From Planctomycetota bacterium (GTDB lineage: Bacteria; Planctomycetota; PUPC01; DSUN01), in contig JBGLNR010000001.1 of assembly GCA_041320515.1 (NCBI GenBank), positions 742,201-806,200 on the forward strand: DNA of 64,000 nt, given 5' to 3'. The translations under genes were made by a program, and so were the position numbers. This document shows positions 28,846 through 45,380 of the stretch, in pieces (the stretch's first letter is position 1; every line of letters begins with the position of its first letter). A model generated the notes under the pieces. It was not told the origin of the DNA, did not search any database, and saw only the letters and a list, made by a program, of their open reading frames with translations.

Positions 28846-28874
28846 AGGGGGGGCGTGGCTCCTGAGATGGTCCC

Positions 28875-30125: not shown

Positions 30126-30141
30126 GGGGTGCCTCCGGGGG

Positions 30142-30516
30142 TCAGGGGTTCTTGGCCTTGGAGCGGTTGGCGAGGACGCGGCGGACCTCGGCCCTGAGTT
30201 CGGACTGGTCGGAGGACTTGATGACATAGGCGTCGGCCGCCCAGGCCATGAAGCTCTCGCGGTAGGTGCCGTACGCCGTGTGGAGGATGACGGGGATGCG
30301 GCTGTTCTCGGCCAGGATGCGGCCGAGGGCCTCGATGCCGTCCATCTGCGGCATGGCCACGTCGAGCACCACGAGGTCGGGCGGCCGGGCCTGGACGGCC
30401 TCGAGGGCCTCGGGGCCGCTGCCGGCGACCGCGACCTGGTGTCCGTCCAGGCGCAGCTCCTCGGCGAAGAGGATCTGCTGGTTCTTGTCGTCCTCGACGA
30501 GCAGGATGTTGGCCAT
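30142..30516 (-). CDS. single-domain response regulator (CheY-like receiver)
   Basis: ILLVEDD..., phospho-acceptor context DLVVLDVAMPQMDG, and a conserved K-containing end. Confidence 0.9.
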   Translation of the reverse strand: MANILLVEDDKNQQILFAEELRLDGHQVAVAGSGPEALEAVQARPPDLVVLDVAMPQMDGIEALGRILAENSRIPVILHTAYGTYRESFMAWAADAYVIKSSDQSELRAEVRRVLANRSKAKNP

Positions 30517-30534
30517 AAGCGAGTCTCCTGGGGG

Positions 30535-33255
30535 TTAGGAGTGGGCGTTGTCCTTGGGGATTGGGAGTGTGACGGTGACGGAGCTTCCCGCGCCGGGCTT
30601 GGAGCGGACGATGATGTCTCCGCCGTGGTCCTGGATGATCTTCTGGCAGACGGAGAGGCCGAGGCCGGTGCCGCCCGGCTTGGTGGTGAAGAAGGGCTGG
30701 AACATGCTCTCGAGCACGCTCTCGGTCATGCCCTGGCCAGTGTCGGCGATGGCGATCTCCACGCGGTCACCCAGGGCTCGGGTGAGGACGGTGAGTTCGC
30801 CGCCGTGGGGCATGGATTCGATGGCGTTCTGGTACAGGTTGAGGAGCACCTGGCGCATCTGGTCGGGGTCGAAGCGGAGGATGGGGCAGCGAGGGTCCAG
30901 GCTCTTGTGGAGGATGATCTTGCGCTCGGCGAAGACGTGCTCGTGGAAGGCGCAGAGGGCTTCCACGGACTCGTTGATGTCGCGCTCGCGGCACACCGGG
31001 CTGCCGGGCTTCGTGAAGTTCATCACGTTGGCCAGGATTTGCTCGAGGCGCTCGACCTCTTCGAGGATGATTCGGGCGTTGCGCTCGACCTTGGGCGCGT
31101 CGCCGGGCGCGCGCAGCATGGCGCGGGTGAAGCCGCCGATGGTGGCCAGTGGGTTGCGGATTTCGTGGGCCACGTGGGCGGCCAGGCGGCCCACGACGGC
31201 CAGGCGTTCGGACCGGACAAGCCGGTCGCGCGTCTCCTCGAGTTCGTTGAGCTGTTCCTCGAGGCGCTTGTAGGCGGCCGCGGCGGAGATGGCGAGGCCG
31301 GCCTGGTTCGCATAGGTCTGGAGGACTTGGACCTCGTGCTCGCCGAGCGGGTGGCTGCTGAAGACGTTGTCGGCCAGGATTGCCCCGAGGGCGGTGTCGC
31401 GGGCGATGAGGGGGACGCAGACGAACTGGCGCGCGCCGAGGAGCGAGCGGAGGTGGGGGGTGACGCCGGGGTCGGCCTCGGCATCGGTGACGAGGACGGC
31501 GTGCTGTTCGGTGAGGGCGCGAATCGGGACCTGATTCGTGTCGGAGAGGGGGATGCGGATCTGGCGCGCCAGGTAGCGCATCGCCGTGTCGGTGGACGCG
31601 TGCGGGTGGTCGAAAAGGGCCAGGATGTCGTCGAGCGTCTGCGCGCGCTGGGCCAGCTCGCGCCAGATGTGGGCCGCCTCCTCGGGGGAGGCTGGGCCGA
31701 CGCCGAGGCGGCCTTCGAGCATGGTGCGGTCGTCGTTGACGAGGAGCAGGATGGCGCGGTTGAAGCCGAGGCCGGGGCCGGCCGTGACGCACGTGAGGAC
31801 GAGGTGGAGGAGGCGGTCGAGTTCGACCACCCCCTGCATGACCTCGCTGAGGCGGCGCAGGAGGGCGAGCTGCTCGACGTTGCGCGCGTGCTCGGTGACG
31901 TCGAACGCGAGCATGATGATCTCGCGGACCTGACCCGCGTGGTCGCGGACCGGAGCGAAGATGTGCTCGTAGTGGCGGGGGCCGCGCGAGGGGTCGTGGT
32001 GGACCTGGATGTCGGTGTGAATCTCGCCGGTGTCGAAGGTGGCCTGAGCCATGCACTCGGGACAGGGGGCCGTGGGGTTGGCGTGGACGACGTGGCACTT
32101 CTGCCCGACGACGCTGTGGCCGCCGCCGAACCAGGCGTTGAGGCTCCTGTTGCTCCACAGGATCGTCAGGTCGCGGCCAACCAGGGCGACGCCTGCCCCC
32201 ATGGCCGACACGATGTCGTCGAGTTCCTGCTTCTCGCGGACCGTCTCGTCCACCAGCCGCGTGTTCTCGATGGCCTGGGCCATCAGGTCGGAGAGGGTTT
32301 CGATGGCCATCACGTCAATCTGGTCGAACGCGCCGATCTCGGTGCACTCGACGTTGATGACGCCGGCGGCTTGGCCCGCGAGCTTGATGGGGACGGCGAG
32401 TTCGGCCTTCGACGCCCTCTCGCCCTCGAAGGCGACGACGTAGTGGGGGTCGTGCGCCACGTCGTTGGCCACGACGGTCGCGCAGGCGTCGGCGGCGTAG
32501 CCGACGATGCCGACGCCGAGGGGCTGGCGGTAGCCGATGGCGGAGGCGGCGTGGTAGGCCCCGGCCTGGGCGCTGAGGACCACCTCGCGGGCCGCGCGGT
32601 CCACCATGAAGAGCGAGACGTCGTAGTAGTCGAACTGCTGTTGGATGAGCGTGGCGGTGCGGCTGAGCAGGGTGGGCAGGTCGAAGGTGGCGAGGGCGTG
32701 GCGTGCGACCTGGTTGATGATGGCGAGGTGGTTGGCGCGCTTGCGCTCGGCGGCGAAGAGCTTGGCGTGGTCGAGCGCGATGGCCACCTGCTCGGCCACG
32801 GCGTGGAGCAGCTCCGCCTCGGTGCCGCTGAAGGGGCGCGGCTCGCGGCGGGCGAAGGCCAGCGCGCCCAGCACGCGGTTGGCCGAGACGAGGGGGAGGG
32901 CGATGCACGAGACCACGCCCTCCTCCGCGAGGGGGTGGTCGGCGGGAAAGCGGGGGTCGGCCCGCAGGTCGGCCACGGCGATGGTCTGCCGCGCGCGCGT
33001 GACCTCGCCCAGGATGTGGCCGTCGAGAGGGATGAGGCTGCCGGTGGGCCGCGTGGTGCCGGGGGTGGCCACCGGCACGAGGAGGCGCAGGCGCTCCCCC
33101 GTGCCATCGAGGAGGCCAAGGACCAGGCGGTCGAAGGCGACCAGCCGGCGCGTCTCGCGGGCCACCACGTCGAGGATCTCGCCCAGCTCGAGCGTGGCGT
33201 TGATGATCTTCGAGATCTCGTAGATCCCGCTCAGCCACTCGCGTGTGATAGCCAT
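30535..33255 (-). CDS. multi-sensor (GAF/PAS) histidine kinase
   Basis: ATG at 33255 (MAITREWLSGIYEISK). Repeated GAF-like segments, H-box AHVAHEIRNPL, and HATPase motifs DTGQGM and GTGLGL. Confidence 0.9.
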   Translation of the reverse strand: MAITREWLSGIYEISKIINATLELGEILDVVARETRRLVAFDRLVLGLLDGTGERLRLLVPVATPGTTRPTGSLIPLDGHILGEVTRARQTIAVADLRADPRFPADHPLAEEGVVSCIALPLVSANRVLGALAFARREPRPFSGTEAELLHAVAEQVAIALDHAKLFAAERKRANHLAIINQVARHALATFDLPTLLSRTATLIQQQFDYYDVSLFMVDRAAREVVLSAQAGAYHAASAIGYRQPLGVGIVGYAADACATVVANDVAHDPHYVVAFEGERASKAELAVPIKLAGQAAGVINVECTEIGAFDQIDVMAIETLSDLMAQAIENTRLVDETVREKQELDDIVSAMGAGVALVGRDLTILWSNRSLNAWFGGGHSVVGQKCHVVHANPTAPCPECMAQATFDTGEIHTDIQVHHDPSRGPRHYEHIFAPVRDHAGQVREIIMLAFDVTEHARNVEQLALLRRLSEVMQGVVELDRLLHLVLTCVTAGPGLGFNRAILLLVNDDRTMLEGRLGVGPASPEEAAHIWRELAQRAQTLDDILALFDHPHASTDTAMRYLARQIRIPLSDTNQVPIRALTEQHAVLVTDAEADPGVTPHLRSLLGARQFVCVPLIARDTALGAILADNVFSSHPLGEHEVQVLQTYANQAGLAISAAAAYKRLEEQLNELEETRDRLVRSERLAVVGRLAAHVAHEIRNPLATIGGFTRAMLRAPGDAPKVERNARIILEEVERLEQILANVMNFTKPGSPVCRERDINESVEALCAFHEHVFAERKIILHKSLDPRCPILRFDPDQMRQVLLNLYQNAIESMPHGGELTVLTRALGDRVEIAIADTGQGMTESVLESMFQPFFTTKPGGTGLGLSVCQKIIQDHGGDIIVRSKPGAGSSVTVTLPIPKDNAHS

Positions 33256-33353
33256 CGCGTGTCCATCCAGAAGACGGGGACATTCTGCTCTCCGCCCCCA
33301 AGGGGGGCGCCGAAGGCCGCTTCGCGGGAAAGCAGAATGTCCCCTTTTCGTCG

Positions 33354-34862
33354 TCAGGCGCAGGCGAGCCGGTACAGTTGCTGGTACTCCCGCGCACTCG
33401 CGTCCCACGACCAGTCCTGGGCCATGCCAATCTGCATGAGGCGGCGCCACGCGCGCGGGTTGCTGTAGACGCGCAGGGCGCGCCGGATGCAGTGGAGCAG
33501 GGCCGCCGCCGAGTAGCTCTCGAAGCTGAACCCGTTGGCCGTGCCCTTGGCCAGGCCCGTCGGCGTGCAGTTGGCGATCGTGTCGGCCAGCCCGCCGGTC
33601 CTGCGAACGACCGGCACCGTGCCGTACTTCAGGCTGTAGAGCTGGTTGAGGCCGCACGGCTCGTAGCGCGAGGGCATGAGGAACATGTCGCAGCCCGCCT
33701 CGATCTGGTGGGCGAGGGTGTTGTTGAACGCCAGTTGAATGCTGAAGCGGTCGGGGCACTCCCTGCCCGCGGCGGCCAGGAGGTCCTGAAGCTCGCGGGT
33801 GCCGGTGCCGAGCAGCACGAACTGGAGGTCGAGGCGCGCCAGGTCGGGCAGGATGGCGGCGACGAGGTCGAGGCCCTTCTGGACGTCGAGGCGCGAGATG
33901 AGGCCCAGGAGCGGCACGTCGCGGGCCGGCAGGCCGCACTTCTCCTGGAGCGCCCGCTTGCAGGCGGCCTTGCCCGCCAGTGGTGTCGCATCTTCAATTC
34001 GCACGTGGCCGCTATGTGCCAATTTAAGATGCGACACCGGGCCGTAGTTCGCGGGCAGCAGCGGGTCGGTCGCCGGGTTCCACACAGCGTAGTCAATCCC
34101 GTTGAGGATGCCGTGGAGGTGCTGGGCGCGGCTGGCGAGCACGCCTTCGAGGCCGCAGCCGAGTTCCTGTGTCTGGATCTCGAGCGCGTAGCGCTTCGAC
34201 ACGGTGTTGAGGCGGTCGGCGTGGACGATGCCGCCCTTGAGGAGGTTGAGCTTGCCGTAGAACTCCAGCTCCCGCCAGTTGAAGTGCCCCTCGGGCAGGC
34301 CGGTGAGGGCGAACGCCTCGCGCGGGAACGTGCCCTGGTACGCCAGGTTGTGCAGCGTGAGGAGCGAGCGGGCGTGGGCGTAGAACGGGTCGGCCGCGTG
34401 CGTGGCCTTGAGGTAGACGGGCACCAGGGCCGTCTGCCAGTCGTTGCAGTGATAGACATCGGGCGGCCAGTTGAGCGCCTTGGTGGCTGCCAGCACGGCC
34501 TTGGCGAAGAAGATAAACCTCTCGGCGTTGTCGGGATAGTCCCCGGCCGGCGTGCCGTAGAGCTGCTCGCGGCCGAAGAAGGGAGGGGCGTCCACCAGGT
34601 AGACGGGCACCTCGCTGTCGGGCAGCGTCGTGCGCAGGAGGGGCGCGGCGATGGTGTCGCCGCCGAGGGATACAGAGAGCTGAACGCCGGTGCCCCGCAC
34701 CTGGCCGGCGAACTTCTCGCGCGTCTGGCGGTAGTAGGGGAGGATGAGCGCCACGTCCTCGCCCAATGCCCGAAGGGACTTGGGGACAGCTCCCGCCACG
34801 TCGGCCAGGCCGCCGGTCTTGGCGAAGGGGACGGCTTCCGCGGTCACGAACAGGATTCTCAC
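33354..34862 (-). CDS. glgA: glycogen synthase (ADP-glucose type, GT5)
   Basis: GTG start at 34862 after GGAGG. ILFVTAEAVPFAKTGGLADV (KTGGL motif) and the C-terminal PSRYEPCGLNQLY. Confidence 0.95.
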   Translation of the reverse strand: MRILFVTAEAVPFAKTGGLADVAGAVPKSLRALGEDVALILPYYRQTREKFAGQVRGTGVQLSVSLGGDTIAAPLLRTTLPDSEVPVYLVDAPPFFGREQLYGTPAGDYPDNAERFIFFAKAVLAATKALNWPPDVYHCNDWQTALVPVYLKATHAADPFYAHARSLLTLHNLAYQGTFPREAFALTGLPEGHFNWRELEFYGKLNLLKGGIVHADRLNTVSKRYALEIQTQELGCGLEGVLASRAQHLHGILNGIDYAVWNPATDPLLPANYGPVSHLKLAHSGHVRIEDATPLAGKAACKRALQEKCGLPARDVPLLGLISRLDVQKGLDLVAAILPDLARLDLQFVLLGTGTRELQDLLAAAGRECPDRFSIQLAFNNTLAHQIEAGCDMFLMPSRYEPCGLNQLYSLKYGTVPVVRRTGGLADTIANCTPTGLAKGTANGFSFESYSAAALLHCIRRALRVYSNPRAWRRLMQIGMAQDWSWDASAREYQQLYRLACA

Positions 34863-34890
34863 AATCTGCCTCCGTGGTAATGGACAACGA

Positions 34891-35080
34891 GTGAGGGGTG
34901 ACGAGTGGCGAGTGGCAAGTGGCAAGTGAAAGGGGAGCCGGAACTACACAGCGTGGCCACTCGCTGCGCGCCACAGTGGCGCGCCGTATTCCACTTGCCA
35001 TCCGTCACTTGCCGCTCGGCACTTCGCACTCTCCACTCCTCACTTGTCACTTGTCACTTGTCACTCGTCACTTCTCACTT
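34891..35080. repeat. long imperfect palindrome of GTGACAAGTG / CACTTGTCAC-type tandem motifs
   Basis: Left arm GTGAGGGGTGACGAGTGGCGAGTGGCAAGTGGCAAGTGAAAG. Right arm CACTTGCCATCCGTCACTTGCC...CACTTGTCACTTGTCACTTGTCACTCGTCACTTCTCACTT. A related motif run is at 49125..49165. Confidence 0.9.
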
Positions 35081-35086
35081 CCCCCC

Positions 35087-36085
35087 TCAGGCCTCGGTGG
35101 TGCGGAGGAACTCGGCGGCGGCCTCGGGCGGCACGGGGTTGATGTAGAAGCCCGTGCCCCACTCGAAGCCGGCCACCTTGGTCAGCCGCGGTATGATCTC
35201 GATATGCCAATGGTAGTGCTCGATAGGCCCCACGTCAAACGGGGTGGTATGGATGATGTAGTTGTAGGCGGGCATGCTCAGGGCGTTCTCGATCTTGGAC
35301 AGGGTGGTCTTCAGGCAGCGGGCCAGGGCCTCGGCGTCGTGCCGCGATATGTCCTCGAAGTGCGACATGTGGCGCTTCGGCACGATCCAGGTCTCGAACG
35401 GGAACCGCGCCGCGTAGGGCTCGTAGGCCAGGAAGCTGTCGCTGTCCAGCACCACGCGGTCGCCGTCCTCCAGCTCCTGGCTCACGATGTCGCAGAAGAT
35501 GCAGCGCCCGCGGTAGCCGAGGAAGGTCTTCCCGCCCCGCATCTCGTCCGCCACCGTGCGGGGCACCGTGGGCAGCACGATGATCTGCGAATGCGTGTGG
35601 TCCAGCGACGCGCCCGCCGTCTTCCCGACGTTCTTGAAGACCATGCCGTAGGTGAACCGCACGTCGCGCTTGAGGTCCGCCAGCCGGTCGCGGTAGGCCC
35701 ACAGGACCTCCTGTATCTGCTCGACGCTGAGGGCGGTGAGGGAGACGGCGTGCTGCGGCGTTTCGACGATGACCTCGTGCGCGCCGATGCCGTTCATGCG
35801 GTCGTAGACGCCGACGCCGCGCTTGTCGAGGTTCCCCTCGATCTGGAGGGCTGGGAACTTGTTGGGCACGACGCGCACGCGCCAGCCGGGGCGGTTGGGC
35901 GCCGTGCCGTGGGCACGGTAGGCGATGATCTCGGGCGGCGTCTTGTCCTCGTTCCCCCCGCAGAACGGGCAGAAGGTGGGCGTTGGCTCCTTCGGCTCGA
36001 CCGCGAAGTCGGTCGGCCGTTTCGCGCGTTCCGTGGCGATGATCACCCACCGCCCGATGATCGGGTCCTTGCGAAGCTCCGGCAT
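35087..36085 (-). CDS. galT: GalT-family nucleotidyltransferase (galactose-1-phosphate uridylyltransferase / ADP-glucose phosphorylase-like)
   Basis: ATG at 36085 after AAGGAG. Zinc site CPFCGGNE and active-site SLDHTHSQ (HxHxQ). Confidence 0.85.
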
Positions 36086-36106
36086 CAAGTGCTCCTTCGA
36101 AGAAGG

Positions 36107-36231
36107 GTGATTGGATGGTTGGATGGTTGGATGGTTGGATGAATGGATGAATGTCAGGCATCCACCCATCCGTTCATCCACTCATCCGACCATTCACCCA
36201 TCCATTCATCCACTCATCCATTCATCCATTC
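36107..36231. repeat. long imperfect palindrome of GGATGG/TGGATGA-type tandem motifs
   Basis: GATTGGATGGTTGGATGGTTGGATGGTTGGATGAATGGATGAATG ... CATCCACCCATCCGTTCATCCACTCATCC...CATCCATTCATCCACTCATCCATTCATCCATTC. Confidence 0.9.
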
Positions 36232-36234
36232 GGT

Positions 36235-39162
36235 CTACACCTGCCACATCTCCCGCTCGAAGTCGGGAGTTGGAATGTCGAATGCCAGGTTGCCCCTGGT
36301 CGGGGCGCGCTCCACCAGCGTGTCGCCGTCGAGCAGGCGCACGTGGAAGCGCGCCGTCTCGCCGGGGCGGAAGCCCAGCTCCTCGAAGGGGCAGGCCACC
36401 TCGGCCAGGTCGGCGGTCCGCATGTCGGCGTCAACCCGCCAGACCGCCTCTGGGTTCTCAAAGCGGAACGTATCCCTGATGCGGCCCAGAACCCAAGAAC
36501 GCAGATCGCTGAAGAACACCGTCGCGTCGTGGCCCCCGGCAATCCAGAGCCGCCGTGCAAGCTCTGCCATCAGGTCCGACTTCAAGTCGGGGAAGAGGAC
36601 GTGCTTCCCTGTATCTCGTTCGAGCCAGTCGTGCAGCACTCCCTCGTAGATGTCGGCGGCCTTGACCCGCTCGCCGCTGTTGGCCCTACGCTCCAGGTGG
36701 TCCAGGTGGGACGCGATCATGGCGAGGAGGACGGGCCGCTTCCCAAGGTCTACAAGATCGTGGATGCGCCCCATGAACTCGAATGCCTCATCGGCCTCAT
36801 GCCCAAGAACCTTGCGGAGATAGGCGCGGATGCGTGCTTCGTCGAAAGGTTGGAGATAGGCTATGGAGAAGTCGCCCGCCTCGAAGCCCTCGCGGGTGCG
36901 AACGCCTCCGCCACCGCCCTGGAGTTTCTCCAGCTCGTTGGCGCGATCGAGGAAGTAGTGGGTACGACACGTAACCAGGACCTTTCCCTGAGAGTCGGCC
37001 GGCGCGGCAGACCGAATCTGGCGCATCAACTCCGTCGCCTGCGCGTCGGTGAGGTGAACTGAATGTTCGTCGAAGCCGTCGAAGATCAGCACCACGTGGC
37101 CTCGCCGAACCGCGGCTAAGACACCACCCGAAGGTAACTCGCCGAATCCTGCCTCCTTCAACAGGTGGTCAAGCATCTCCTCGAGCCTGGGAACCCGCTC
37201 TTCCCTCCACACGGGGAGGTTCCGCATGTCGAGATAGAGTGGCACGGGCAAGCTCCGCTCGCCTCGCTCCCGAAGTTCGAGCAGCATCGCGCTCCACATG
37301 CGGCTGAGAAAGGACTTGCCGACCCCGTAGTCGCCCAAGATTGCGCAGAAGCGGACATCCGGCATCCGCACCCAGTCGAGAAGGTACAGGCGCCCTTCCT
37401 CCGCCGAACTGACCTCCGACCCTTTGAGCGGCGTGACCTGTGGCGACACGTAGTGGTCTGGCTGGTAGAGCCTCTCGCGTCTATCGTGAAGGACTCGTTC
37501 GCTGACTTGCCCTGCCCTGGCCCAGGCGTCGAGGTGCGATCGGAGCCCCACTGGGGTCACCTGCTCCCACCCCAAGGTGCCCAGTCGGTTCTTGACCACG
37601 AGTAGATCCAGGTCGCGAACCTTCTCGCCCGCCATGGGCGAGCCCTTGCCCTGCTCGTCGAAGATGCCCACCACCAGATCCTTGTCCCTTCCGAAGCACT
37701 TCCCGGGGATGCTGATAAGGAAGACGCGGCCTCGGTTCTCTGAGCGGATGCGGGGCCTGTGCTCTGTGGGGACGAAATCGCGCACGATGCGGCTAGCCTC
37801 GGCTAGCACCGGGCTGGCGAGGATGTGGCCGCCCCGCAGGCCGAAACTCCGCAGGTCCGCCGTCCAACCGTCCCATGGGCTACCTGGGGTCAGGATGTGT
37901 CCCTGGCCCAGAAGCGTCCCATGCTGCTCTGCTGTCCAGTGGCGCCGCAGGAAGTGGAGGTAGCTCTCGCTCTCGACCCCCTCGACCAGCAGCGGCTTGC
38001 CGGCCAGGCTGTACGACGCGATGTCGCGGACGACCGCTTCTGCATCCTTCTCCCGGTACTTCATGAGTTCCTGGAAGAGCGCGAAGTCCACCTTGGACAG
38101 CTCGGCGTGGGCGGAGAGTTCGTATCGTACCTCGCGCTGTAGTTCGTTGACATCGTCGAAGCAGAGGCGGAGGCCAAAACCCTCAACAAGCTGCTTGATC
38201 AGTGGTACGTGCCCTTTGGCCGTGGATTCGCTGATCTCGAAGAGGACGTTCGTCTGCCACTTGTCGCGGTACGTGTCGAGGAAGCGCTCGAGGACATCGC
38301 TCTCCAACAGCGGAGGATCGAGGTTGATGGTGAAGAGCAACTGCTGGGGACTCGCGTTCGGGGCGAGGCGGGTCTCGGAGCGGAGGGTGCTGGCGGATTC
38401 AAAGGCTGCCAGGGTGATGAGGAAGCGAAGGAGAGCAGGGCTAACCTTGCCCTCGAAGCGCTTCTCGATCTCGCCGAATGCCTGGCCATTCATCCCGAGG
38501 GCGAGGCACTCGAAGCCGAGGACCATGGGCACGGGGGTCTGGGGGACGATCTGGACGATCGGCTCGAGCTTCGTGCAGAGGTTGCTGAGGAAAGTGCGGT
38601 CCTCGGGGGCGAGCGCCGTCCACTCGTCAGGCGCGAAGCGCTCCGCGAAGCGGGTGAGTGTGTCGGGGAAGCGAACGGCCGGCAGGCCGATGGTGACTTC
38701 CTGAGCAACGTACTCCGCGGACGGGGTGCCGGGGAACTCCCTGCGATGCTCGCGCTCGATGACCTCCGTTGCCTTGCGCGCTTCCTCGTCTTCCGCTCGC
38801 CTCGCGAGTTCCTCAGGTGTGAGGACCTCCTCGAACCAAACCCGTTTCTGCGCGGCAGGGCTGTTGTCCTGGGGATTGCACATGACGAGGCGGAGCCCCT
38901 GAGCCTCGAAGTGCTCGTTGAGGCGTTTCTTGAAGCCGCGGTAGTTGCTCTGAGCCTTCGACTCCTCGTCCTCGGGCCATACGGCGGCCAGAACGCTCTC
39001 CATCGGCACGTCGCAGCGCCGCGCGAAGAGAGTTCGAAGAACCTCCGCCTTCGGCGCATCGTGCCGCCCGAGAACGCCCTTCCCGAGCAGAGCGCCGAGC
39101 CCGTCCCGGATGCGGCCCGCATCTTCCAGCCTCACGCTCACCTGTTCCGTTCCTTCCGCCAT
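36235..39162 (-). CDS. wHTH - EAL-domain - NACHT (STAND) NTPase fusion protein, 975 aa; extreme C-terminus possibly of foreign (GH57-like) origin
   Basis: - N-terminal OmpR-like wHTH (SVLAAVWPEDEE...YRGFKKRLNEHF).
- EAL fold with all usual catalytic positions, about nt 37870-38550: GFECLAL, TINLD, FEISES, CFDDV, SKVD, VEGVESE, GQGH.
- NACHT Walker A GDYGVGKS (about 37312-37335), Walker B VVLIFDGFDE (about 37065-37092), VLVTCRTHYF. Confidence 0.8.
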   Translation of the reverse strand: MAEGTEQVSVRLEDAGRIRDGLGALLGKGVLGRHDAPKAEVLRTLFARRCDVPMESVLAAVWPEDEESKAQSNYRGFKKRLNEHFEAQGLRLVMCNPQDNSPAAQKRVWFEEVLTPEELARRAEDEEARKATEVIEREHRREFPGTPSAEYVAQEVTIGLPAVRFPDTLTRFAERFAPDEWTALAPEDRTFLSNLCTKLEPIVQIVPQTPVPMVLGFECLALGMNGQAFGEIEKRFEGKVSPALLRFLITLAAFESASTLRSETRLAPNASPQQLLFTINLDPPLLESDVLERFLDTYRDKWQTNVLFEISESTAKGHVPLIKQLVEGFGLRLCFDDVNELQREVRYELSAHAELSKVDFALFQELMKYREKDAEAVVRDIASYSLAGKPLLVEGVESESYLHFLRRHWTAEQHGTLLGQGHILTPGSPWDGWTADLRSFGLRGGHILASPVLAEASRIVRDFVPTEHRPRIRSENRGRVFLISIPGKCFGRDKDLVVGIFDEQGKGSPMAGEKVRDLDLLVVKNRLGTLGWEQVTPVGLRSHLDAWARAGQVSERVLHDRRERLYQPDHYVSPQVTPLKGSEVSSAEEGRLYLLDWVRMPDVRFCAILGDYGVGKSFLSRMWSAMLLELRERGERSLPVPLYLDMRNLPVWREERVPRLEEMLDHLLKEAGFGELPSGGVLAAVRRGHVVLIFDGFDEHSVHLTDAQATELMRQIRSAAPADSQGKVLVTCRTHYFLDRANELEKLQGGGGGVRTREGFEAGDFSIAYLQPFDEARIRAYLRKVLGHEADEAFEFMGRIHDLVDLGKRPVLLAMIASHLDHLERRANSGERVKAADIYEGVLHDWLERDTGKHVLFPDLKSDLMAELARRLWIAGGHDATVFFSDLRSWVLGRIRDTFRFENPEAVWRVDADMRTADLAEVACPFEELGFRPGETARFHVRLLDGDTLVERAPTRGNLAFDIPTPDFEREMWQV

Positions 39163-39216
39163 CTCGGTCCCCCTGTCCGAACATTCTCGGCTGTCTGACT
39201 GGCTGTCGCGCTCGCT

Positions 39217-39456
39217 TCAGTTGTTCTCCCACAGCGCGGCGCCGAGGCGCCTGAGCGCCGCCTCAATGTGGGCCAGGGCGGCTCGGGTGACCGGGGTCTG
39301 TGGGGCGCTGCTGAGAAAGCCGCAGGCTGCCCTGAGTTCCTCGACAGCCGAGCGCTTCTTCGTCGCGTCCTTGGTCATCATCTTCAGCAGGTCGCCGGCG
39401 AAGCACTCCCCGCGCTTGAGTTCGCACCAGGCGTTCGGCCTTTCGACTGTCAGCAT
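39217..39456 (-). CDS. small hypothetical protein (79 aa) immediately upstream of the EAL-NACHT gene
   Basis: ATG at 39456 preceded by AGGAGA. Ends 54 nt before the NACHT start. No recognisable motif; probably all-helical. Confidence 0.4.
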   Translation of the reverse strand: MLTVERPNAWCELKRGECFAGDLLKMMTKDATKKRSAVEELRAACGFLSSAPQTPVTRAALAHIEAALRRLGAALWENN

Positions 39457-39916
39457 CGTGCCTCTCCTGACCCTTGGGTGCCACCGTGGACGACGCAGGG
39501 CTCGCACACAACGCGCGTAGCTCGCGTTGACTGCGTTACAACATAATATCACAGACGCAGGGTTTGTCAAGTGGTCTTGCGGCGGTAATTTCGCGCCCGT
39601 TGAGAGTTCTGGGGCCACGATCCGCAAACACCCGTCGCGGCGCTTGGGTGCTGCGCAGAATGGGGGGCACATCCTCAAGTGTCAGTTACGAATGTCCCGC
39701 CTCACCTTGCGGACGGCCCGCGCAGATTCGCCAGGGAACGCGTTCGGCCAGAGCGACGGCTTGCACTCTTGTTGGCGCGGCGGCAGTAGGGGCCGCCGCG
39801 ATCATCGTGACCTACAATGCGGCGCATTGCAGGGACTCCGATGTCCCTCGCTACGGTTGGGCGGCGATGACGCCGCAGGAGTTTGTGTCTCGCTATCCCA
39901 TCGAGGAGGCATAGTG

Positions 39917-40186
39917 ATGGCTACTCTGTCGCTGCGCGTGCGGGATGGCCTGAAGCGCAAGGTGGCGGCACTGGCCGAGCGCGAGGGGGTGTCGCTGAAC
40001 AACTACATCAACGCGACGCTGGCCGCAACGGTCGCTCAGGAGGAGACGCTGGCGTTCTTCGACGAGCGGCTGCGCGGGATGGACCTTCCCGCCGTTCACC
40101 GCCGCGTGATGGGCTTCATGGACAAGGCGCGGCCCGGCAAGGAACCGGCAGTCGAAGAGGTCGAGAGAGCCATCCGAGGGAGGTAG
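39917..40186 (+). CDS. RHH (CopG/HicB-C-terminal-like) antitoxin-type DNA-binding protein, orphan
   Basis: ATG at 39917 after GAGGAGG. MATLSLRVRDGLKRKVAALAEREGVSLNNYINATLA is a typical ribbon-helix-helix N-terminus. Confidence 0.7.
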   Translation: MATLSLRVRDGLKRKVAALAEREGVSLNNYINATLAATVAQEETLAFFDERLRGMDLPAVHRRVMGFMDKARPGKEPAVEEVERAIRGR

Positions 40187-40283
40187 GCAGCGCCCCAGCC
40201 CTCTCGGTGGGAAGGGGAGGTTGGGTTGGCTTAAGTTGCAAAGTTGCGGCCTGACCCCAGGGCCGGCAAAGGAGGTCGACTCT

Positions 40284-40455
40284 GGCGAGTCTGGGCGAGA
40301 CTGAGCCGGAATGGGGAGAATCGCCAATCCGCGTGTCGGCAAGGCGGCGAGTCTGGGCGAGACTGGGCAGGAAGGCCGAGAATCGCCAATCCTGGGCGCC
40401 GGAAATCGAGAAAGCCGCGCGAATCTGAGCCGGAAGGCCGAGGATGGCCAAATGG
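40284..40455. repeat. ~61-bp tandem repeat, about 2.6 copies
   Basis: GGCGAGTCTGGGCGAGACTG(A/G)GC...GAGAATCGCCAATCC occurs at 40284 and 40345, with a degenerate third copy. CCGGGAAGGTTGGGGA is also repeated at about 40513 and 40607. Confidence 0.85.
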
Positions 40456-40781
40456 CAGGATGCGTGGGCCGATGTCTGGCCCGTTGGCCAGAGAAGGGTC
40501 CGCCCGCGAGAGCCGGGAAGGTTGGGGAGGTTGGGAGGGTTGCAGCATGTTGTGGTTCAACCAGCCAGCGCACACAAGAGCTTGTGGAAAGGTGGCAGGG
40601 GCTAGAACCGGGAAGGTTGGGGAGCTTGGAGCCGTTGGCAAGTGCTGTCGGCGCGTCTGCCGGGCACACGAACTGCAAAATCCCTTTGACTTCCCCCGGG
40701 CGCGGCGCTATAAGTAGAGGAATGCCGGCAGGGGACGGCGAATCGAGTGCGACGGCAACCCGACTGGAAAGGCGTCTCGAT

Positions 40782-43700
40782 ATGAGGAGCCGAAGGCTCG
40801 TCTGGTGCGTCGCGGCGGCGGTTGTCGCGGCGCTGGCCGTCGCGGCGTCCGCGTGGGGGCTGGCGGGCGCGGCACGTCCCGCCGAACAATGCCTGGTCCA
40901 CGGCCAAGTGGCAGGCGCCGATGGCGCGCCCGTGGCCGGCGTGACCGTGCGGTTCTCCACGGGCTTGCCGCCACAGGTGACGGACAAGGATGGCCGCTAC
41001 GAGGTGCTTGCGCCCAGCGATGGCGAGCCGTGCGTCGTGACGCCAGCCAAGGCGGGCTGCGACTTCGTGCCCGCCGAGCGGCGCGTGTGGCTCTCGGGCG
41101 ACGCGGCCGAGGCGAGCTTCCAGGCACAGCCCCAGCGCAGCGCGAAGATGGACGACGCGCCCGTGCCAAACCCCCTGGCGGCGATGGCCGTCACCTACTT
41201 CGTTATCAATGACGACGCGGAGTACACGACGACCCGCACCGTGACGCTGAACAATGTGTGCGACGGGGCGCCCACCCACTACCAGGCGAGCGAGCTGCCC
41301 GGCTTCACCGGCGCCACCTGGCTCCCCTACTCCGCCGCCCCCACGTTCGACCTTTCCGCCGGCAACGACGCCAAGACCGTCTACTTCCGCGTTGGCGACG
41401 CCGGCGGCATCTCCAGCGGAGCGTCCGACTCCATCATCCTCAACGAGCCGGTCGTGGTCGTGCTGACGGTGAACGGCCCGGTGAAGACGGGCTGGGCCTG
41501 GCCCGCGGCCGAGGAGGACTGGTATGCCTTCACCGCGGCCGCCACCGCCGAGCACACGATCGAGACCTGGGCCGGCACCCTCGACGACAACGAGATGGCG
41601 CTCTATGCCGCCGACCAGACGACGCTGCTCGAGGAAGACCACGACTCGGGCGAGGGGACGTGCGCCAAGATCGTCCGCACCCTCGACCCCGGCGCCTACT
41701 TCGTCCGCGTCCGCGCCCATCTCGCCGGCGCCACGGGCACCTACACCATCCGCGTCACCACGGGCGACACGACGGTGGCCATCCTCGACCCCCACGGCGA
41801 TCCGACGGCGACCACGCAGCTCGACGTGGGGAACGCCGAGGTCGTCTTCTCGACGAGCACCCCGGGCACGCTCGAGATCATCTGCCGCTTCGCCGTCAAG
41901 CCGGGCGCCGTCGCCGGCATCACGGACAAGGTTCGGGCCTGCATCGAGCCGGTCGGCGCCGCCGCCCTCCAGTGGCTCACGCCCAGCGACACGAGCGCCA
42001 CCTGGGCCGACTCCCCGGCCGGCCGCCCCGCCACCGCCCACACCACGATGGGCAAGGCCACCTACGACCCCATCGCCGACCGCTACGAGGTCAAGGCAGT
42101 CTTCACCGGCCTGCCGACCGACAACAGCGGCTTCGGCCCGAAGACGCTCTGGGCGCAAGTCGTGGACGGCGCGGCCGTCGTCGCCGAGGCCGAGCAGCCC
42201 CTCGAAGTCTTCTTCCCCAAGCTCGGCGCCAACAATTCAGGCACGGGCGTCAACCAGGGACCCAACTGGTTCTACTACTGGAAGACCGGCAACGTCTGCG
42301 GCGCCACCACGGGCTGGGAATACGCGGTCAGCCCCGACTTCGGCTTCTACGTCCCCGGCGAGAACCACGTCAACCTCTGCGACGCCGCCCCCACCGTGAA
42401 CACCGGCCCCGAGCACTACGAGAACGACCTCGGCGACGGCATCGAGATCGCCGGCCAGGGCATCGGCCCCCACTGCGCATCCGAAACCATCGCCCACGAA
42501 GAACTCCACAAGTGGATCTTCGAAACCTGGGCGCCTCTCATCGCCGCCGACGAGGCCGACGGCGAGACCGACGGCGACGACTACGACGACCCCGACGACG
42601 ATGGCGTGCCCAACATCCACGAGGACGGCTTCCTCGCCCTAACCACCGACACGAACGACCCCGACACCTATAACATGGGCGGCACCTACGCCACCTACGG
42701 CGACCAGGAAATCCGCTGCCGCAAGACCGAACTCGACACCGGCCTCACCGTCACCGACGCCGACGACTGGGCCTACCCCGGCACCAACTCCTGTCCCCCA
42801 TACCCCCTGGTCGAGGCCCAGCTCCCCGACCCCGAGGAAGGGGAGCCAGACGAGGACCTGGACCACCTGGGCAACCCCGGCGACGACACCATCGTCCACG
42901 AGGGCACAGGGGTCCCCAACACCCAGGACGCCTACGGCGGCGCCGGCAACGACAGCATCCGCCAGAACGGCCGGGGCGGCGCCGACACCCAGACCGCCTA
43001 CGGCGGCAGCGGCGACGACACCATCATCCAAACCGGCGGCCGCGGCGACGACACCCAGCTCGCCAACGGCGGCAGCGGAAACGACCTCATCACCCAGCAC
43101 GCCGCACGCGGCAACGACACTAGCCAGGCCAACGGCGGCACCGGCGACGACACCATCATCCAGCGCGGCCGCCGCGGCAGCGACACCGTGGCCGCCGACG
43201 GCGGCGACGGCGACGACACCATCCGCCAGGATGGCAGGCGCGGCGCCGACTCCTTGCTCGCCACAGGCGGCGGCGGCAACGACCTGATCTTCCAGGGCGC
43301 CGGCCGTGGCAACGACTCCCTCACCGCCTCCGGCGGCGACGGCGACGACCAGATCACCCAGATCGGCAACAGCGGCAACGACTCGCTCACCTACGACCTC
43401 AGCCCCGGCAACGACCAGGCCTCCCTCATCGGCGGCAGCGGCCGTGACACCCTCACCATCCACTCCAACAGCCAGAGCTTCACCCTCCTCGACACCCGCG
43501 GCAACATCCTCTACCAGCAGGGCACAGGCGGCTCCACCATCGTCGTCCTGGGGATCGAGGACCTCACCGTCATCGGCGACGACGGCATCACCCCCGTCTA
43601 CACCGCATCCAAGCAGAACGTCCGCCTCCCCCTCGCCAACCCAACGAGAGGGACCCCGAGGGCCTACGTCGGCCCCACGCGCCTGCACGCCCTCCGCGGC

Positions 43701-43949
43701 GCCCACACCCATCCCACGCCGCACGCCCGAACCGACGCGGCAGACGACACCCCACCCGATGCCCAGGGCCAGACCCCCCTCCACGTCGCCGCCCGCGCCG
43801 GGGACCTCGCCACCACCACACGCCTCCTCGAACTTGGCGCCGACCCCAACGCCAAGGACAAGGACGGCACGACCCCGCTCCGCCTCACCATCGAAGCCGG
43901 CCACACCCAGATAGCCGACCTTCTGCGGCAGCGCGGCGCGAGACAGTGA
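40782..43949 (+). CDS. large secreted multidomain protein: CarboxypepD_reg-like, PPC-like, HExxH metalloprotease-like, 7 x 22-aa GG.G.D repeats, C-terminal ankyrin repeats
   Basis: - ATG at 40782 with leader MRSRRLVWCVAAAVVAALAVAASA.
- VHGQVAGADGAPVAGVTVRF; EEDWYAFTAAATAEHTIE...YTIRV; IAHEELHKW.
- Asp-rich DGDDYDDPDDDGVPN.
- Repeats A(Y/N)GG(S/A)G(N/D)D.I.Q.G.RG.DT...
- Ankyrin TPLHVAARAGDL...GADPNAKDKDGTTPL. Confidence 0.75.
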   Translation: MRSRRLVWCVAAAVVAALAVAASAWGLAGAARPAEQCLVHGQVAGADGAPVAGVTVRFSTGLPPQVTDKDGRYEVLAPSDGEPCVVTPAKAGCDFVPAERRVWLSGDAAEASFQAQPQRSAKMDDAPVPNPLAAMAVTYFVINDDAEYTTTRTVTLNNVCDGAPTHYQASELPGFTGATWLPYSAAPTFDLSAGNDAKTVYFRVGDAGGISSGASDSIILNEPVVVVLTVNGPVKTGWAWPAAEEDWYAFTAAATAEHTIETWAGTLDDNEMALYAADQTTLLEEDHDSGEGTCAKIVRTLDPGAYFVRVRAHLAGATGTYTIRVTTGDTTVAILDPHGDPTATTQLDVGNAEVVFSTSTPGTLEIICRFAVKPGAVAGITDKVRACIEPVGAAALQWLTPSDTSATWADSPAGRPATAHTTMGKATYDPIADRYEVKAVFTGLPTDNSGFGPKTLWAQVVDGAAVVAEAEQPLEVFFPKLGANNSGTGVNQGPNWFYYWKTGNVCGATTGWEYAVSPDFGFYVPGENHVNLCDAAPTVNTGPEHYENDLGDGIEIAGQGIGPHCASETIAHEELHKWIFETWAPLIAADEADGETDGDDYDDPDDDGVPNIHEDGFLALTTDTNDPDTYNMGGTYATYGDQEIRCRKTELDTGLTVTDADDWAYPGTNSCPPYPLVEAQLPDPEEGEPDEDLDHLGNPGDDTIVHEGTGVPNTQDAYGGAGNDSIRQNGRGGADTQTAYGGSGDDTIIQTGGRGDDTQLANGGSGNDLITQHAARGNDTSQANGGTGDDTIIQRGRRGSDTVAADGGDGDDTIRQDGRRGADSLLATGGGGNDLIFQGAGRGNDSLTASGGDGDDQITQIGNSGNDSLTYDLSPGNDQASLIGGSGRDTLTIHSNSQSFTLLDTRGNILYQQGTGGSTIVVLGIEDLTVIGDDGITPVYTASKQNVRLPLANPTRGTPRAYVGPTRLHALRGAHTHPTPHARTDAADDTPPDAQGQTPLHVAARAGDLATTTRLLELGADPNAKDKDGTTPLRLTIEAGHTQIADLLRQRGARQ

Positions 43950-43970
43950 GCTGCTTCCGCGTCCACCCCC

Positions 43971-44000
43971 TTGCAAGTCCCCCTGCCGATCCCGTATAAT
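43971..44000 (+). promoter_or_regulatory. sigma70-like promoter for the tRNA (TTGCAA - 18 nt - TATAAT)
   Basis: TTGCAA at 43971-43976 and TATAAT at 43995-44000. The tRNA 5' end is 17 nt downstream. Confidence 0.5.
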
Positions 44001-44016
44001 CCCAGGGAAGGCACAA

Positions 44017-44093
44017 GGGCCCTTAGCTCAGTTGGTCAGAGCAGGGGACTCATAATCCCCCGGCCGTCCGTTCGAATCGGACAGGGCCCACCA
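44017..44093 (+). tRNA. tRNA-Met (anticodon CAT; could be tRNA-Ile2 if lysidine-modified), encoded CCA
   Basis: Manual cloverleaf: acceptor GGGCCCT/AGGGCCC, D arm GCTC-AGTTGGTCA-GAGC, anticodon arm GGGGA-CTCATAA-TCCCC, T arm GTCCG-TTCGAAT-CGGAC, then ACCA. Confidence 0.95.
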
Positions 44094-45376
44094 GAATCAT
44101 ACCCGCGCGGATCACCTATTCTCGCCACCATACGCAATCCAGTTCCCGATTCGTCAACTTCGGCTTCTGCCCCATCATCAGCCTGTGGCAAGCCGTAGCA
44201 AACCACGTCTTGACCCGAATCTACTGTACCCCGCACTGTACTGGTCGGGGCCTCCAACGCGGGAACCATCCCCAGCGCCGTCGCTTTGTCCTGCAAGGCC
44301 ACGTGGGAGTAGACGCCCAACGTCAGCTTCGGGTCGCTGTGGCGCGCGAGTTCCTGGCACAGCTTCACGTTGATACCGCTGCGCACGAGGCGGGATACGA
44401 AGGTGTGTCTCAGGCTATGGAAGTCCGCCACGCCCGCCGGCACTTCGACCTCGACCCCTGCCGCCTTCAGGTCCGCATGGGCCGCCTCAAGGTCCGCTTT
44501 CAGCAGGTCCGCCGTCCGCGCCAGCTTCCCGAACACGGGGACGCCAGCCGCCTTGCCCACGAGCCACGGCCCCAGCACGTCGGCCAGGCCACGAGGCAGG
44601 GGTTGAACGTCGCGCCGCCGCCGCTTGGAGTAGCCGGCCTCGACTGTCACCGTGGGCGGGTCGGCGGCCAGGGCGAAGCTCTCGGGCGTCAAGCTGGCAA
44701 GCTCCCCCGCCCTCAGGCCCGTGCCCACGGCCACGGCATACAGCATCGCCCGGTCGGGGCCGTCCATGCCCAGCGCGGGGCCGCTCTCATAGGTCACGCG
44801 AAGCAGGGCCGATAGCTCTGTGTCGCTCAGGGCCCGCCGCACGAGGCGCCGATCTTCCTCGACGTTGTAGCCCTTCAGGGCCACGAGGGAATGACTGCGC
44901 GTCCGCCCCTCCCGCCAGAGCCACGCGGCGAAGTGCTTGATCGACGTCAGGTGCGCGTTCGCCGTCCGATGGGACACCTTGCCCTCTGCGATCATCGTTC
45001 CCACGGCGCGTTGCACGGGCGACGGCGCCAGGTCGCTCAGGCGGGCCGCCCCCGTGGCCGCCACGAGGCGTTGCAGATGGGTCTCAGTGCGGGCGACGTG
45101 CTTGACCGTGCCCCCGCTCGCCCGCAGGGTTGCCAGGAAGTCCTTGACGTGCTGGGCCAGGGGCTTCGCTTCCTCGGCGGCCAGGCGCTCCACCACAGGA
45201 TCAAACCTCCCCTTCCGCCGAAGCATCGCGTCACCCTCTAACTGGTTTGCCAACTCTTGGGCCTTCTTCAGGTCGCGGCCGGCGTAGACGGTCTTCCGCA
45301 GGCCGGGGCGTTCGGAGTACTCCACGAAGTACCCGCCCTTGCCCTTCCGCCCCCCTCGCTTGAAGATGCTCGCCAC
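44036..45376 (-). CDS. int: tyrosine site-specific integrase; 3' end of the ORF overlaps the tRNA
   Basis: GTG start at 45376 after AAGGAG (VASIFKRGG...). Catalytic-domain motifs AVGTGLRAGEL, HSLRHTFVS and LGVYSHV. The ORF runs 58 nt into the tRNA 3' half. Confidence 0.9.
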   Translation of the reverse strand: MASIFKRGGRKGKGGYFVEYSERPGLRKTVYAGRDLKKAQELANQLEGDAMLRRKGRFDPVVERLAAEEAKPLAQHVKDFLATLRASGGTVKHVARTETHLQRLVAATGAARLSDLAPSPVQRAVGTMIAEGKVSHRTANAHLTSIKHFAAWLWREGRTRSHSLVALKGYNVEEDRRLVRRALSDTELSALLRVTYESGPALGMDGPDRAMLYAVAVGTGLRAGELASLTPESFALAADPPTVTVEAGYSKRRRRDVQPLPRGLADVLGPWLVGKAAGVPVFGKLARTADLLKADLEAAHADLKAAGVEVEVPAGVADFHSLRHTFVSRLVRSGINVKLCQELARHSDPKLTLGVYSHVALQDKATALGMVPALEAPTSTVRGTVDSGQDVVCYGLPQADDGAEAEVDESGTGLRMVARIGDPRGYDSGGPCPIRTDGRGIMSPLL

Positions 45377-45380
45377 TGGT

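Follow-up and report, generated by a model that had tools for sequence, protein, structure and literature searches.

The 975-aa ORF on the minus strand of the window (positions 36235–39162 of the 64-kb stretch of DNA that was analyzed) probably unites, in frame, an NLR-like gene acquired by horizontal transfer, of which the 5′ 2.75 kb remain, with the last 58 codons of a resident GH57 glycoside hydrolase gene. In its intact form the acquired gene would encode a sensor-triggered NACHT-EAL phosphodiesterase, and the copy in the window is likely a relic. The ORF comprises residues 1–917 from the NACHT gene, residues 918–975 from the GH57 gene and the stop codon. The first-pass annotation had correctly reported a 975-aa ORF, and its STAND/NLR-like reading of the EAL and NACHT domains holds; the intact product that it assumed is contradicted by the GH57 tail, the missing end of the winged-helix domain (WHD) and the absence of the whole sensor. 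It had also raised a chimeric ORF as an objection, and a chimera is what was found, with NACHT-family homology ending at residue 917 and a GH57 sequence behind it. Two truncated genes appear to have been fused here, either naturally or in the assembly, and a truncated fusion, instead of an intact regulator, is what the annotation of the ORF should record.

The recombination junction lies at 36411/36412: close relatives are syntenic at the nucleotide level from 36412 on, and homology to the NACHT family ends with codon 917 (36412–36414). BLASTP aligns the 1651-aa homolog P0002 (61% identity) as far as residue 917; beyond it, P0002 and the family consensus run on through the motif TFLxRD..FAHxSFxEFFLAR, pentapeptide repeats and WD40 repeats. 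The window ORF is cut inside the WHD, ahead of the TFLxRD...FAHxSFxEFF segment with its conserved histidine, and the C-terminal repeats of the sensor are absent from it. Full-length genomic relatives measure 1,500–1,893 aa (family range to about 1,900) and carry a pentapeptide and WD40 sensor.

Downstream of the junction, the last 58 GH57 codons (36238–36411, minus strand) are read in their native frame. The tail, whose origin was traced through galT-syntenic metagenome loci, shares 91% amino acid identity with residues 638–695 of the GH57 protein from relative L174 (E = 1.4e-28) and has a counterpart in seven more galT-syntenic loci. Searched against Pfam and PDB sequences, the 58 residues returned only noise, and the tail was modeled with a pLDDT below 50. 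At the nucleotide level, identity to L174 is about 90% from 36412 on through the conserved glycogen cluster galT-glgA-HK-RR-glgC flanking the junction, the first gene of which is the galT-like gene at 35087–36085 (minus strand). Two opposed arrays of 8-nt repeats (36111–36228) lie between the stop codon of the ORF and galT. Close relatives encode an intact GH57 of 695–716 aa upstream of galT. Here the glycogen cluster has lost this gene from its usual position, and the remaining 637 codons, together with the upstream genes of L174, are absent from the 64-kb window, as is any remnant of pentapeptide or WD40 repeats. An origin of the tail as a frameshifted remnant of the 3′ part of the NACHT gene was considered and rejected, both on the lack of such repeats and on the native, high-GC3 frame of the tail. 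GC3 is 0.93 in the tail, 0.81 in the NACHT body and 0.90–0.92 in core genes, and the lower GC content noticed at first proved to be a modest drop (0.63–0.65 in the NACHT locus vs. 0.66–0.71 in the flanks).

The N-terminal domain (residues 28–123; 38794–39081, minus strand) affiliates with Pfam NNH6 (PF22737, E = 6.5e-13), as do all 21 family members, and not with Trans_reg_C as the proposed OmpR-like winged helix would. Its predicted secondary structure follows a helix-strand-helix-helix-hairpin topology. The putative EAL-like phosphodiesterase domain (residues 150–455; 37798–38715, minus strand) and an alpha/beta linker without family assignment (residues 456–589; 37396–37797, minus strand), which is kept in the NACHT-type family members, precede the P-loop. 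The NACHT NTPase (residues 590–917; 36412–37395, minus strand) continues through a helical domain into just the beginning of the WHD. Its recognition as NACHT was sound: PF05729 matched residues 605–788 with 29.2 bits (cut-off 26.7), and the Walker A (GDYGVGKS, 610–617), Walker B (LIFDGFDE, 692–699) and TCR motifs were present, and so was the sensor-1 residue R733 that is invariant across the family. The PDB folds closest to the full model were NOD2 (E = 3e-9) and NLRC4, representing the NLR-type NBD-HD fold. The ORF matched no PADLOC model, and NCBIfam gave one weak match to EruA (E = 0.035).

The EAL-like domain was modeled by AF2 with a pLDDT of 93.5, and its top 50 fold matches in the PDB were EAL domains without exception (50/50). 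Foldseek comparisons with canonical EAL domains reached a probability of 1.0 and E values down to 7e-11. The catalytic set, mapped onto TBD1265 via a profile alignment, is complete (E218, N280, E309, E312, D336, D337, K357, E394, E397 and Q420), and the positions are kept in 74–83 of the 83 family domains, with the exception of E397 (54/83). Fold matches and conservation thus agree with the initial claim of an EAL fold with all canonical catalytic positions; the profile itself fell short, as Pfam EAL (PF00563) scored 23.8 bits under a cut-off of 31.3 on the window ORF and 17–28 bits on relatives scanned one by one. The arginine of the EALxR motif is gone (ECLAL, L222), and loop 6 is not kept, with DDVNELQRE aligned to DDFGTGYSS of MorA. 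The EALxR arginine and the loop 6 motif DFG(T/A)GYSS are c-di-GMP contact and regulatory motifs. Because these motifs are replaced, c-di-GMP appears doubtful as the substrate, and so does the earlier idea of c-di-GMP degradation.

An exhaustive HMMER search recovered the EAL-like domain in 115 clusters, 22 of which are fused to this NACHT type. Word-indexed homology searches gave two matches for the protein, three for the domain profile and none for the 58-aa tail; genome contigs were searched with a profile from a nine-sequence alignment, and the matches did not include the window's own genome. The family is found in about 16 species-level genomes of Planctomycetota, Nitrospirota, Thermodesulfobacteriota, Magnetococcales and Gammaproteobacteria. 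Members without NACHT are joined to TIR_2 (12), TPR-S (11), MAP3K_TRAF_bd (3), kinase (3) and caspase (2) domains and further to FGE-sulfatase, PNP and DUF4062, and GGDEF and PAS domains occur in 1 of the 88 scanned. The association with TIR, TPR-S, caspase, kinase, FGE-sulfatase and PNP favors a role of the domain in conflict or immunity. An enrichment in defense islands was not borne out, since no neighbor gene recurred among the 91 neighbors of 13 loci and PADLOC matches to them were scattered. The homologs reside mainly among ordinary chromosomal genes, with scattered TA, DpdF and AbiL-type matches.

The claim that an EAL effector in this architecture is uncharacterized agrees with the literature as far as its text was accessible. 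The term 'EAL' is absent from the accessible text and supplements of Kibby et al. (2022) and from the accessible main text of Kaur et al. (2020, 2021); of the accessible publications naming both 'EAL domain' and 'NACHT', none is about a fusion by title, and one uses the two terms apart. An EAL-type domain in the effector position hence appears undescribed in the searchable literature.

Two neighboring genes had been considered as possible parts of the module. The 79-aa ORF (39217–39456, minus strand) indeed lies 54 nt upstream of the NACHT ORF and is called as a gene in two assemblies, and it constitutes a singleton cluster without family match. As a conserved partner it was ruled out: tblastn of its product against 173 loci found nothing, L007 has an unrelated 83-aa membrane-like ORF upstream, L001 has none, and the ORF accompanies 0 of the homologs examined. 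The RHH gene (HicB/RelB-like antitoxin, 89 aa; 39917–40186, plus strand) had been described as an orphan, but it is the intact antitoxin of a PIN-RHH pair with a truncated toxin, and it is not a conserved partner either. Of the PIN_3 toxin gene, 34 codons at the 3′ end are left (39810–39911, plus strand), with nucleotide homology to L178 from 39791, and this scar (39791–39911) sits 3.4 kb from the junction. The RHH protein is 91% identical to the antitoxin of relatives, and PIN_3-RHH pairs are whole in L178–L182. Both the 79-aa ORF and the RHH gene are bystanders. At the proposed boundary of the accessory stretch, the tRNA-Met gene (44017–44093, plus strand) is present. The tyrosine-recombinase gene (about 44111–45376, minus strand) is located beyond it, on the 3′ side, and therefore the NACHT gene is not inside the integrase-defined island. 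A search of the window for an attR-like copy of the tRNA 3′ end was negative.

The intact gene order would be NNH6, EAL-like phosphodiesterase, NACHT NTPase, and pentapeptide repeats with WD40 propellers, from which an illegitimate recombination or deletion may have taken the distal WHD segment and the whole sensor along with the first 637 GH57 codons. In the retained 917 codons, 4 of 112 family-invariant positions are changed, the fewest among nine sequences; each of the four substitutions is conservative, and the catalytic and P-loop residues are all intact. Since these codons are undecayed, either the truncation is very recent or the product is still selected. Most likely, the window copy is a relic of recent origin, either non-functional or deregulated.

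By analogy with bacterial NACHT proteins and Avs, a trigger would be bound by the WD40/pentapeptide sensor of the intact protein, nucleotide exchange and oligomerization of the NACHT module would follow, and the N-terminal EAL-like domains would be brought together. This would turn on a two-metal phosphodiesterase that probably acts on another nucleotide instead of, or in addition to, c-di-GMP. In canonical EAL enzymes activity requires dimers, and this dependence makes the activation mechanism directly testable. The data show the domain identities, the chimeric junction with its truncation, and how the family is distributed and fused to other domains; from them we infer this mechanism and the substrate class, as well as an immune role of the family and the loss of function in the window copy. 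More tentatively, and with somewhat less than even confidence, the EAL-like domain may constitute an unrecognized class of immune or conflict effectors, i.e. phosphodiesterases switched by the oligomerization of NACHT, TIR or other scaffolds and acting on a non-c-di-GMP messenger or an essential nucleotide. EAL enzymology would then be linked to bacterial NLR/TIR-type immunity. The window copy has no ADP-locking histidine segment, and without this autoinhibitory part of the WHD and without the sensor it could be a naturally 'unlocked' allele. Among bacterial NLR-like proteins, effectors that act as nuclease, NADase or protease or that cleave nucleotides are known; for these proteins, an EAL-type phosphodiesterase would be a new output chemistry. 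At least 115 clusters contain the domain, with TIR, caspase, kinase and TPR-S among its partners, so one biochemical characterization would annotate the whole family.

It is rather unlikely that the truncated fusion is itself functional, as a sensor-less NACHT-EAL enzyme, constitutive or differently regulated, that is kept by selection, e.g. as a housekeeping nucleotide phosphodiesterase. Such a product would fit the conserved sites, which have no surplus of changes, and the whole catalytic, Walker A/B and sensor-1 residues, and the in-frame junction leaves the ORF open to the native stop codon. Truncated copies also recur in the family (L014, 1122 aa; L016, 1280 aa), and bacterial NACHT proteins become hyperactive when the WHD histidine is lost (Kibby et al. 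2022). However, the cut falls within the folded WHD instead of between domains, the added 58 residues are foreign and of low pLDDT, in-frame joining by accident has a 1-in-3 chance, and the undecayed sequence is equally expected after a recent event. Moreover, homology and genome-contig searches did not find the same truncated form in a second genome. An assembly artefact, in which unrelated regions were mis-joined at 36411/36412 and the true NACHT gene is full length elsewhere, is highly improbable. A single assembly contains the junction; the independent MAG contig L183 breaks off 121 nt away from it, in the way that assembly graphs end close to branch points; and the contig index records no gene position for the exact 975-aa product. 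Against a mis-join, the source contig extends over 5.97 Mb, it is collinear for kilobases on both sides of the junction, and neither a pentapeptide/WD40 remnant nor the GH57 5′ part turns up elsewhere in the 64-kb window. The adjacent PIN truncation is shared by an independent assembly (99.94% identical), so real rearrangement scars exist in this region.

Slightly less likely than a functional fusion is that the family consists of STAND-type transcription regulators such as SARP/AfsR and XssQ, with NNH6 as a DNA-binding winged helix of the OmpR type, an EAL-like domain that senses or turns over a nucleotide signal, and no immune role. A relationship of NNH6 to winged helices is weakly suggested by its predicted topology, which fits such a fold, and by three of six profile matches to the AfsR wHTH (E = 0.07–0.3, aligned on helices 2–3); yet none of the 21 NNH6 sequences matched Trans_reg_C or BTAD in Pfam, and hhalign to an approximate sequence of a PhoB DNA-binding domain gave a probability of 0.13. 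Kibby et al. (2022) list wHTH domains among the NACHT adaptors, but their Table S1 also contains NNH6+PNPase+NACHT+WD40 in clade 11, where an enzyme likewise follows NNH6. A NACHT-type regulator, XssQ, is reported in the literature, and the mainly chromosomal neighborhoods would suit a regulator, but no conserved target operon lies beside the homologs, and the fusions to TIR, caspase, TPR-S and kinase are those of conflict systems.

Canonical EAL phosphodiesterases (PF00563; TBD1265, RocR, YahA/PdeL and MorA) share with the EAL-like family the TIM-barrel-like fold and the metal-binding and catalytic residues E, N, ExxE, DD, KxD, EGxE and QG. In contrast, the EAL-like family scores under the Pfam gathering threshold, replaces EALxR by E-C-L-A-L without the arginine, YQP by LEP and loop 6 DFG(T/A)GYSS by DD-x-N-x-W/L, and has an additional helical segment at its N terminus in which FP and W residues are conserved. 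Its partners are TIR, NACHT, TPR-S and caspase domains, whereas those of canonical EAL domains are GGDEF, PAS and REC. SARP/AfsR regulators (OmpR-type wHTH, BTAD, NB-ARC and TPR) resemble the family in a small N-terminal helical domain, weakly AfsR-like here, a STAND NTPase and repeats, but the family has no Trans_reg_C or BTAD match, a NACHT instead of an NB-ARC module, and an inserted EAL-like enzyme. Compared with PIN-RHH type II toxin-antitoxin systems, the neighboring pair has an intact RHH but only the last 34 codons of its PIN_3 toxin. Avs/AVAST and other STAND antiviral ATPases follow the same logic of sensor repeats, STAND NTPase and oligomerization-activated effector; here a NACHT module supplies the NTPase, and the effector would cleave the phosphodiester of a small nucleotide, whereas theirs are nucleases, SIR2 or proteases. 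The tripartite layout of the NLR-related antiphage proteins known as bNACHT (effector, NACHT, C-terminal repeats) is present in the full-length homologs with their pentapeptide and WD40 repeats, while the window ORF is devoid of the repeats. In architecture the family closely resembles bNACHT clade 11 (NNH6, effector, NACHT, pentapeptide/WD40), to which Table S1 of Kibby et al. (2022) assigns NNH6 architectures. The resemblance includes NNH6, the NACHT motifs, the NLR-like fold, the single-gene organization, an enzyme between NNH6 and NACHT (cf. NNH6+PNPase+NACHT) and, in the full-length homologs, the pentapeptide and beta-propeller sensor. The window copy differs in lacking the WHD end and the sensor, and the family in having an EAL-like phosphodiesterase, an enzyme outside the effector types listed by Kibby et al. 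(2022). Taken in its intact form, the family is most plausibly a previously undescribed variant of the bacterial NLR-like systems.

An open reading frame of 975 codons (36235–39162) lies on the reverse strand of the window, and its codon-position GC (0.69/0.42/0.82) is typical of a genuine coding sequence. The neighbouring core genes have a higher GC3 (galT 0.92, glgA 0.90), a difference compatible with a foreign origin of the frame. Pfam assigned residues 28–123 to NNH6, the "NACHT N-terminal helical domain 6" (E 6.5e-13), and residues 605–788 to NACHT (29.2 bits, cut-off 26.7), with a sub-threshold EAL match in between (residues 248–407, 23.8 bits, cut-off 31.3). PADLOC returned nothing for the product and NCBIfam only noise. 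The first-pass annotation had read the N-terminus as an OmpR-like winged helix; Pfam places NNH6 there instead and found no match to Trans_reg_C in the 975-aa product. Likewise, all 21 NNH6 sequences tested matched Pfam NNH6 and none matched Trans_reg_C. The evidence for NNH6 as a winged helix points both ways: among PDB sequences its profile weakly matched the winged helix of the SARP regulator AfsR (E 0.07–0.3), and its predicted topology of helix, strand, helix, long helix and hairpin is compatible with that fold, but an hhalign comparison with an approximate sequence of the PhoB DNA-binding domain remained below significance. The NACHT motifs noticed earlier are borne out, as Walker A (GDYGVGKS), Walker B (LIFDGFDE) and the sensor-1 arginine (TCR) are invariant across the family and the Pfam match lies above its cut-off. 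The best matches of the model of the full-length reading frame (pLDDT 82.6) were NOD2 and NLRC4.

An exhaustive HMMER search with residues 1–590 against 1.84 billion representative proteins recovered an EAL-like family of 115 clusters at E ≤ 1e-3, 86 of them at E ≤ 1e-10. In an alignment of 83 near-complete domains (window residues 150–455), the canonical EAL catalytic positions were nearly invariant: E218 (79/83), N280 (78/83), E309 (80/83), E312 (74/83), D336 (77/83), D337 (78/83), K357 (83/83), E394 (77/83), G395 (82/83), Q420 (82/83) and G421 (79/83), with E397 weaker (54/83). The family profile matched solved EAL enzymes, foremost TBD1265 (E 3e-8), followed by MorA, BifA, YahA/PdeL, DosP and RocR, with the N, ExxE, DD, KxD, EGxE and QG motifs in register. 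An AlphaFold2 model of the domain built from 40 sequences reached a pLDDT of 93.5 and a pTM of 0.91, and all 50 of its 50 best PDB fold matches were EAL domains (probability 1.0). Since motif conservation, profile matches and fold matches agree, the original motif reading was correct, and from the sequence we infer a putatively active, metal-dependent phosphodiesterase. In contrast to canonical EALs, every member scanned individually scored below the Pfam EAL cut-off (17–28 bits), the arginine of EALxR is replaced (E-C-L-A-L) and loop 6, DFG(T/A)GYSS, reads DD-V-N-E-L. In EAL enzymes this arginine and loop 6 make contacts to c-di-GMP and link catalytic activity to dimerisation; therefore, the substrate may be other than c-di-GMP.

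The window gene is a truncated and chimeric fusion, and not the intact giant protein of 975 aa initially proposed. Its closest relative, P0002 (1651 aa, 61% identical), aligns with residues 1–917; beyond this point P0002, like the family consensus, continues through TFLVRD...FAHKSLMEFF into pentapeptide repeats and WD40 blades, and intact genomic copies of the gene encode 1,500–1,893 aa. The C-terminal 58 residues bear no relation to the NACHT family, have a GC3 of 0.93 and were modelled with a pLDDT below 50. They match the 3′ end of the gene directly upstream of galT in seven galT-syntenic loci (E 3e-11 to 1e-7), a GH57 glycoside hydrolase. Close relatives (galT at least 90% identical) share the order GH57 (695 aa)-galT-glgA-histidine kinase-response regulator-glgC, and the tail is 91% identical to residues 638–695 of a relative's GH57 (E 1.4e-28). 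Neither the remaining 637 GH57 codons nor the relative's genes upstream of GH57 occur in the 64-kb window, and nucleotide homology of about 90% to the relative begins exactly at 36412, a position that is also the third base of NACHT codon 917. Together these three observations fix the junction, at which the two parents share at most about two bases of possible microhomology. At the glycogen cluster the window genome has lost its GH57 except for 58 codons. The remainder of this cluster (28874–36411; galT-glgA-GAF/PAS histidine kinase-response regulator-glgC) is collinear with the Planctomycetota MAG contigs L174/L177 at about 90% nucleotide identity. The metagenome JGI 3300020109 yields both L174 (galT at least 90% identical) and the full-length P0002 (loci L001/L002); there the NACHT homologue lies elsewhere, flanked by genes for a PQQ propeller and a DUF4139 protein, and GH57 is complete. 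Short arrays flank galT (36111–36228 and 35004–35081), consisting of the 8-nt repeats TTGGATGG and CATCCACT in opposed orientation together with 7-nt tandem repeats; 8-mers of this kind are also found in L178 (11269–11339), a contig from a related metagenome source, and the arrays look like intergenic simple repeats specific to the lineage.

The retained part of the window allele shows no decay: it carries four changes at 112 family-invariant sites, all conservative and the lowest number among nine sequences. Thus, either the truncation happened recently or the product still serves a purpose. As the gene is interrupted within a folded domain and carries a foreign tail, we lean towards a recent relic. 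The allele lacks the sensor and the segment of the NACHT winged-helix domain bearing the ADP-locking histidine, and by analogy its product would be either inert or deregulated. Split or shortened NNH6-EAL-NACHT homologues were also present in L010 (10001–14193), L014, L016 and L026 (1206+191, 1122, 1280 and 575 aa), and decay or truncation seems common in this gene type.

The surroundings were also reinterpreted. The 79-aa reading frame upstream (39217–39456), considered a partner of the module in the first-pass annotation, is a singleton cluster without family match, and no counterpart was present upstream of any homologue examined. The supposedly orphan RHH gene (39917–40186) encodes a protein that shares 91% identity with the antitoxin of the PIN_3-RHH pair that relatives carry (complete in contigs L178–L182); directly upstream of the intact RHH, just the last 34 codons of the PIN_3 toxin gene remain, with homology starting at 39791. 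The segment 36412–39790 is thus bounded by two truncated genes, GH57 and PIN_3. Placement of the NACHT gene in an integrase-bounded stretch is not supported, as the tyrosine recombinase (about 44111–45376) is encoded 3′ of tRNA-Met, whose 3′ end its reading frame overlaps (44017–45620), and the NACHT gene lies on the 5′ side, outside a would-be integrase island. A search of the window for an attR repeat of the tRNA end found none. The relative orientation of tRNA and integrase is opposite in a close relative (L178, 3508–4885), indicating a rearrangement hotspot. Between RHH and tRNA-Met, a large protein is encoded on the forward strand (40311/40809–43949), also present in contig L183. It has a Pfam PPC match just under the cut-off, C-terminal Pfam ankyrin repeats and, read by eye, a signal-peptide-like start and many GGxGxD-type repeats; it is probably secreted. 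The independent MAG contig L183 (GCA_041308305.1, JBFZBT010000962.1) corresponds to window positions 36533–45902 with 99.94% identity and confirms the order integrase-ankyrin protein-RHH-79-aa frame-NACHT as well as the PIN scar. It stops 121 nt away from the NACHT/GH57 junction, which is therefore seen in one assembly (5.97-Mb contig); this end may represent an assembly-graph branch, e.g. strain heterogeneity at the junction.

Within the wider family, 22 of the 115 clusters combine the EAL-like domain with the NACHT type of the window protein, 12 of these with a detectable NNH6. About 16 loci in species-representative genomes matched from the N-terminus through NACHT, in Magnetococcales, Brocadiaceae, Planctomycetaceae, Nitrospirota, Thermodesulfobacteriota and one gammaproteobacterium. 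Partners in the other 88 clusters were TIR_2 (12), TPR-S (11), MAP3K_TRAF_bd (3), protein kinase (3) and caspase (2), with single cases of FGE-sulfatase, PNP_UDP_1, HD and DUF4062. Partners of this kind are typical of NTP-dependent conflict systems (Kaur et al., PMC7159879, PMC8195603). Among the 91 genes neighbouring the homologue at 13 loci, no family occurred more than three times and no conserved partner gene emerged, and defence-type neighbours were only scattered (MNT/HepT, VapBC, HicAB, DpdF, AbiLi); this looks like a single-gene system. A sizeable subfamily of two-domain proteins of about 470–590 aa joins TIR_2 to the EAL-like domain (P0011, P0014, P0015, P0021, P0050, P0117–P0119; loci L011–L013), a pairing of TIR and phosphodiesterase without description in the papers examined. 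They are encoded singly and in unremarkable chromosomal surroundings (Thermoanaerobaculia and others).

Domain order and family partners are observed, and activation can be proposed by analogy. Canonical EAL enzymes work as dimers, and activation by proximity would thus suit an EAL-type enzyme. On the model of the NACHT and Avs proteins characterised in bacteria (Kibby et al. 2022), the repeat sensor would bind a trigger, the NACHT module would then oligomerise and the N-terminal enzyme would become active by proximity. NCBI names one homologue 'EAL protein'. In the accessible portions of the text and supplements of Kibby et al. and of the main text of both Kaur et al. papers the term 'EAL' is absent; among the three publications found to mention both 'EAL domain' and 'NACHT', none concerns such a fusion by its title, and in one of them the terms stand apart. 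NNH6 architectures sit in NACHT clade 11, which includes NNH6+PNPase+NACHT+WD40 (Kibby et al., bioRxiv 10.1101/2022.07.19.500537, Table S1), so that NNH6 precedes an enzyme there too. We place the family among the bacterial NLR-like systems, with an effector of a new type, the EAL-like enzyme that follows NNH6.
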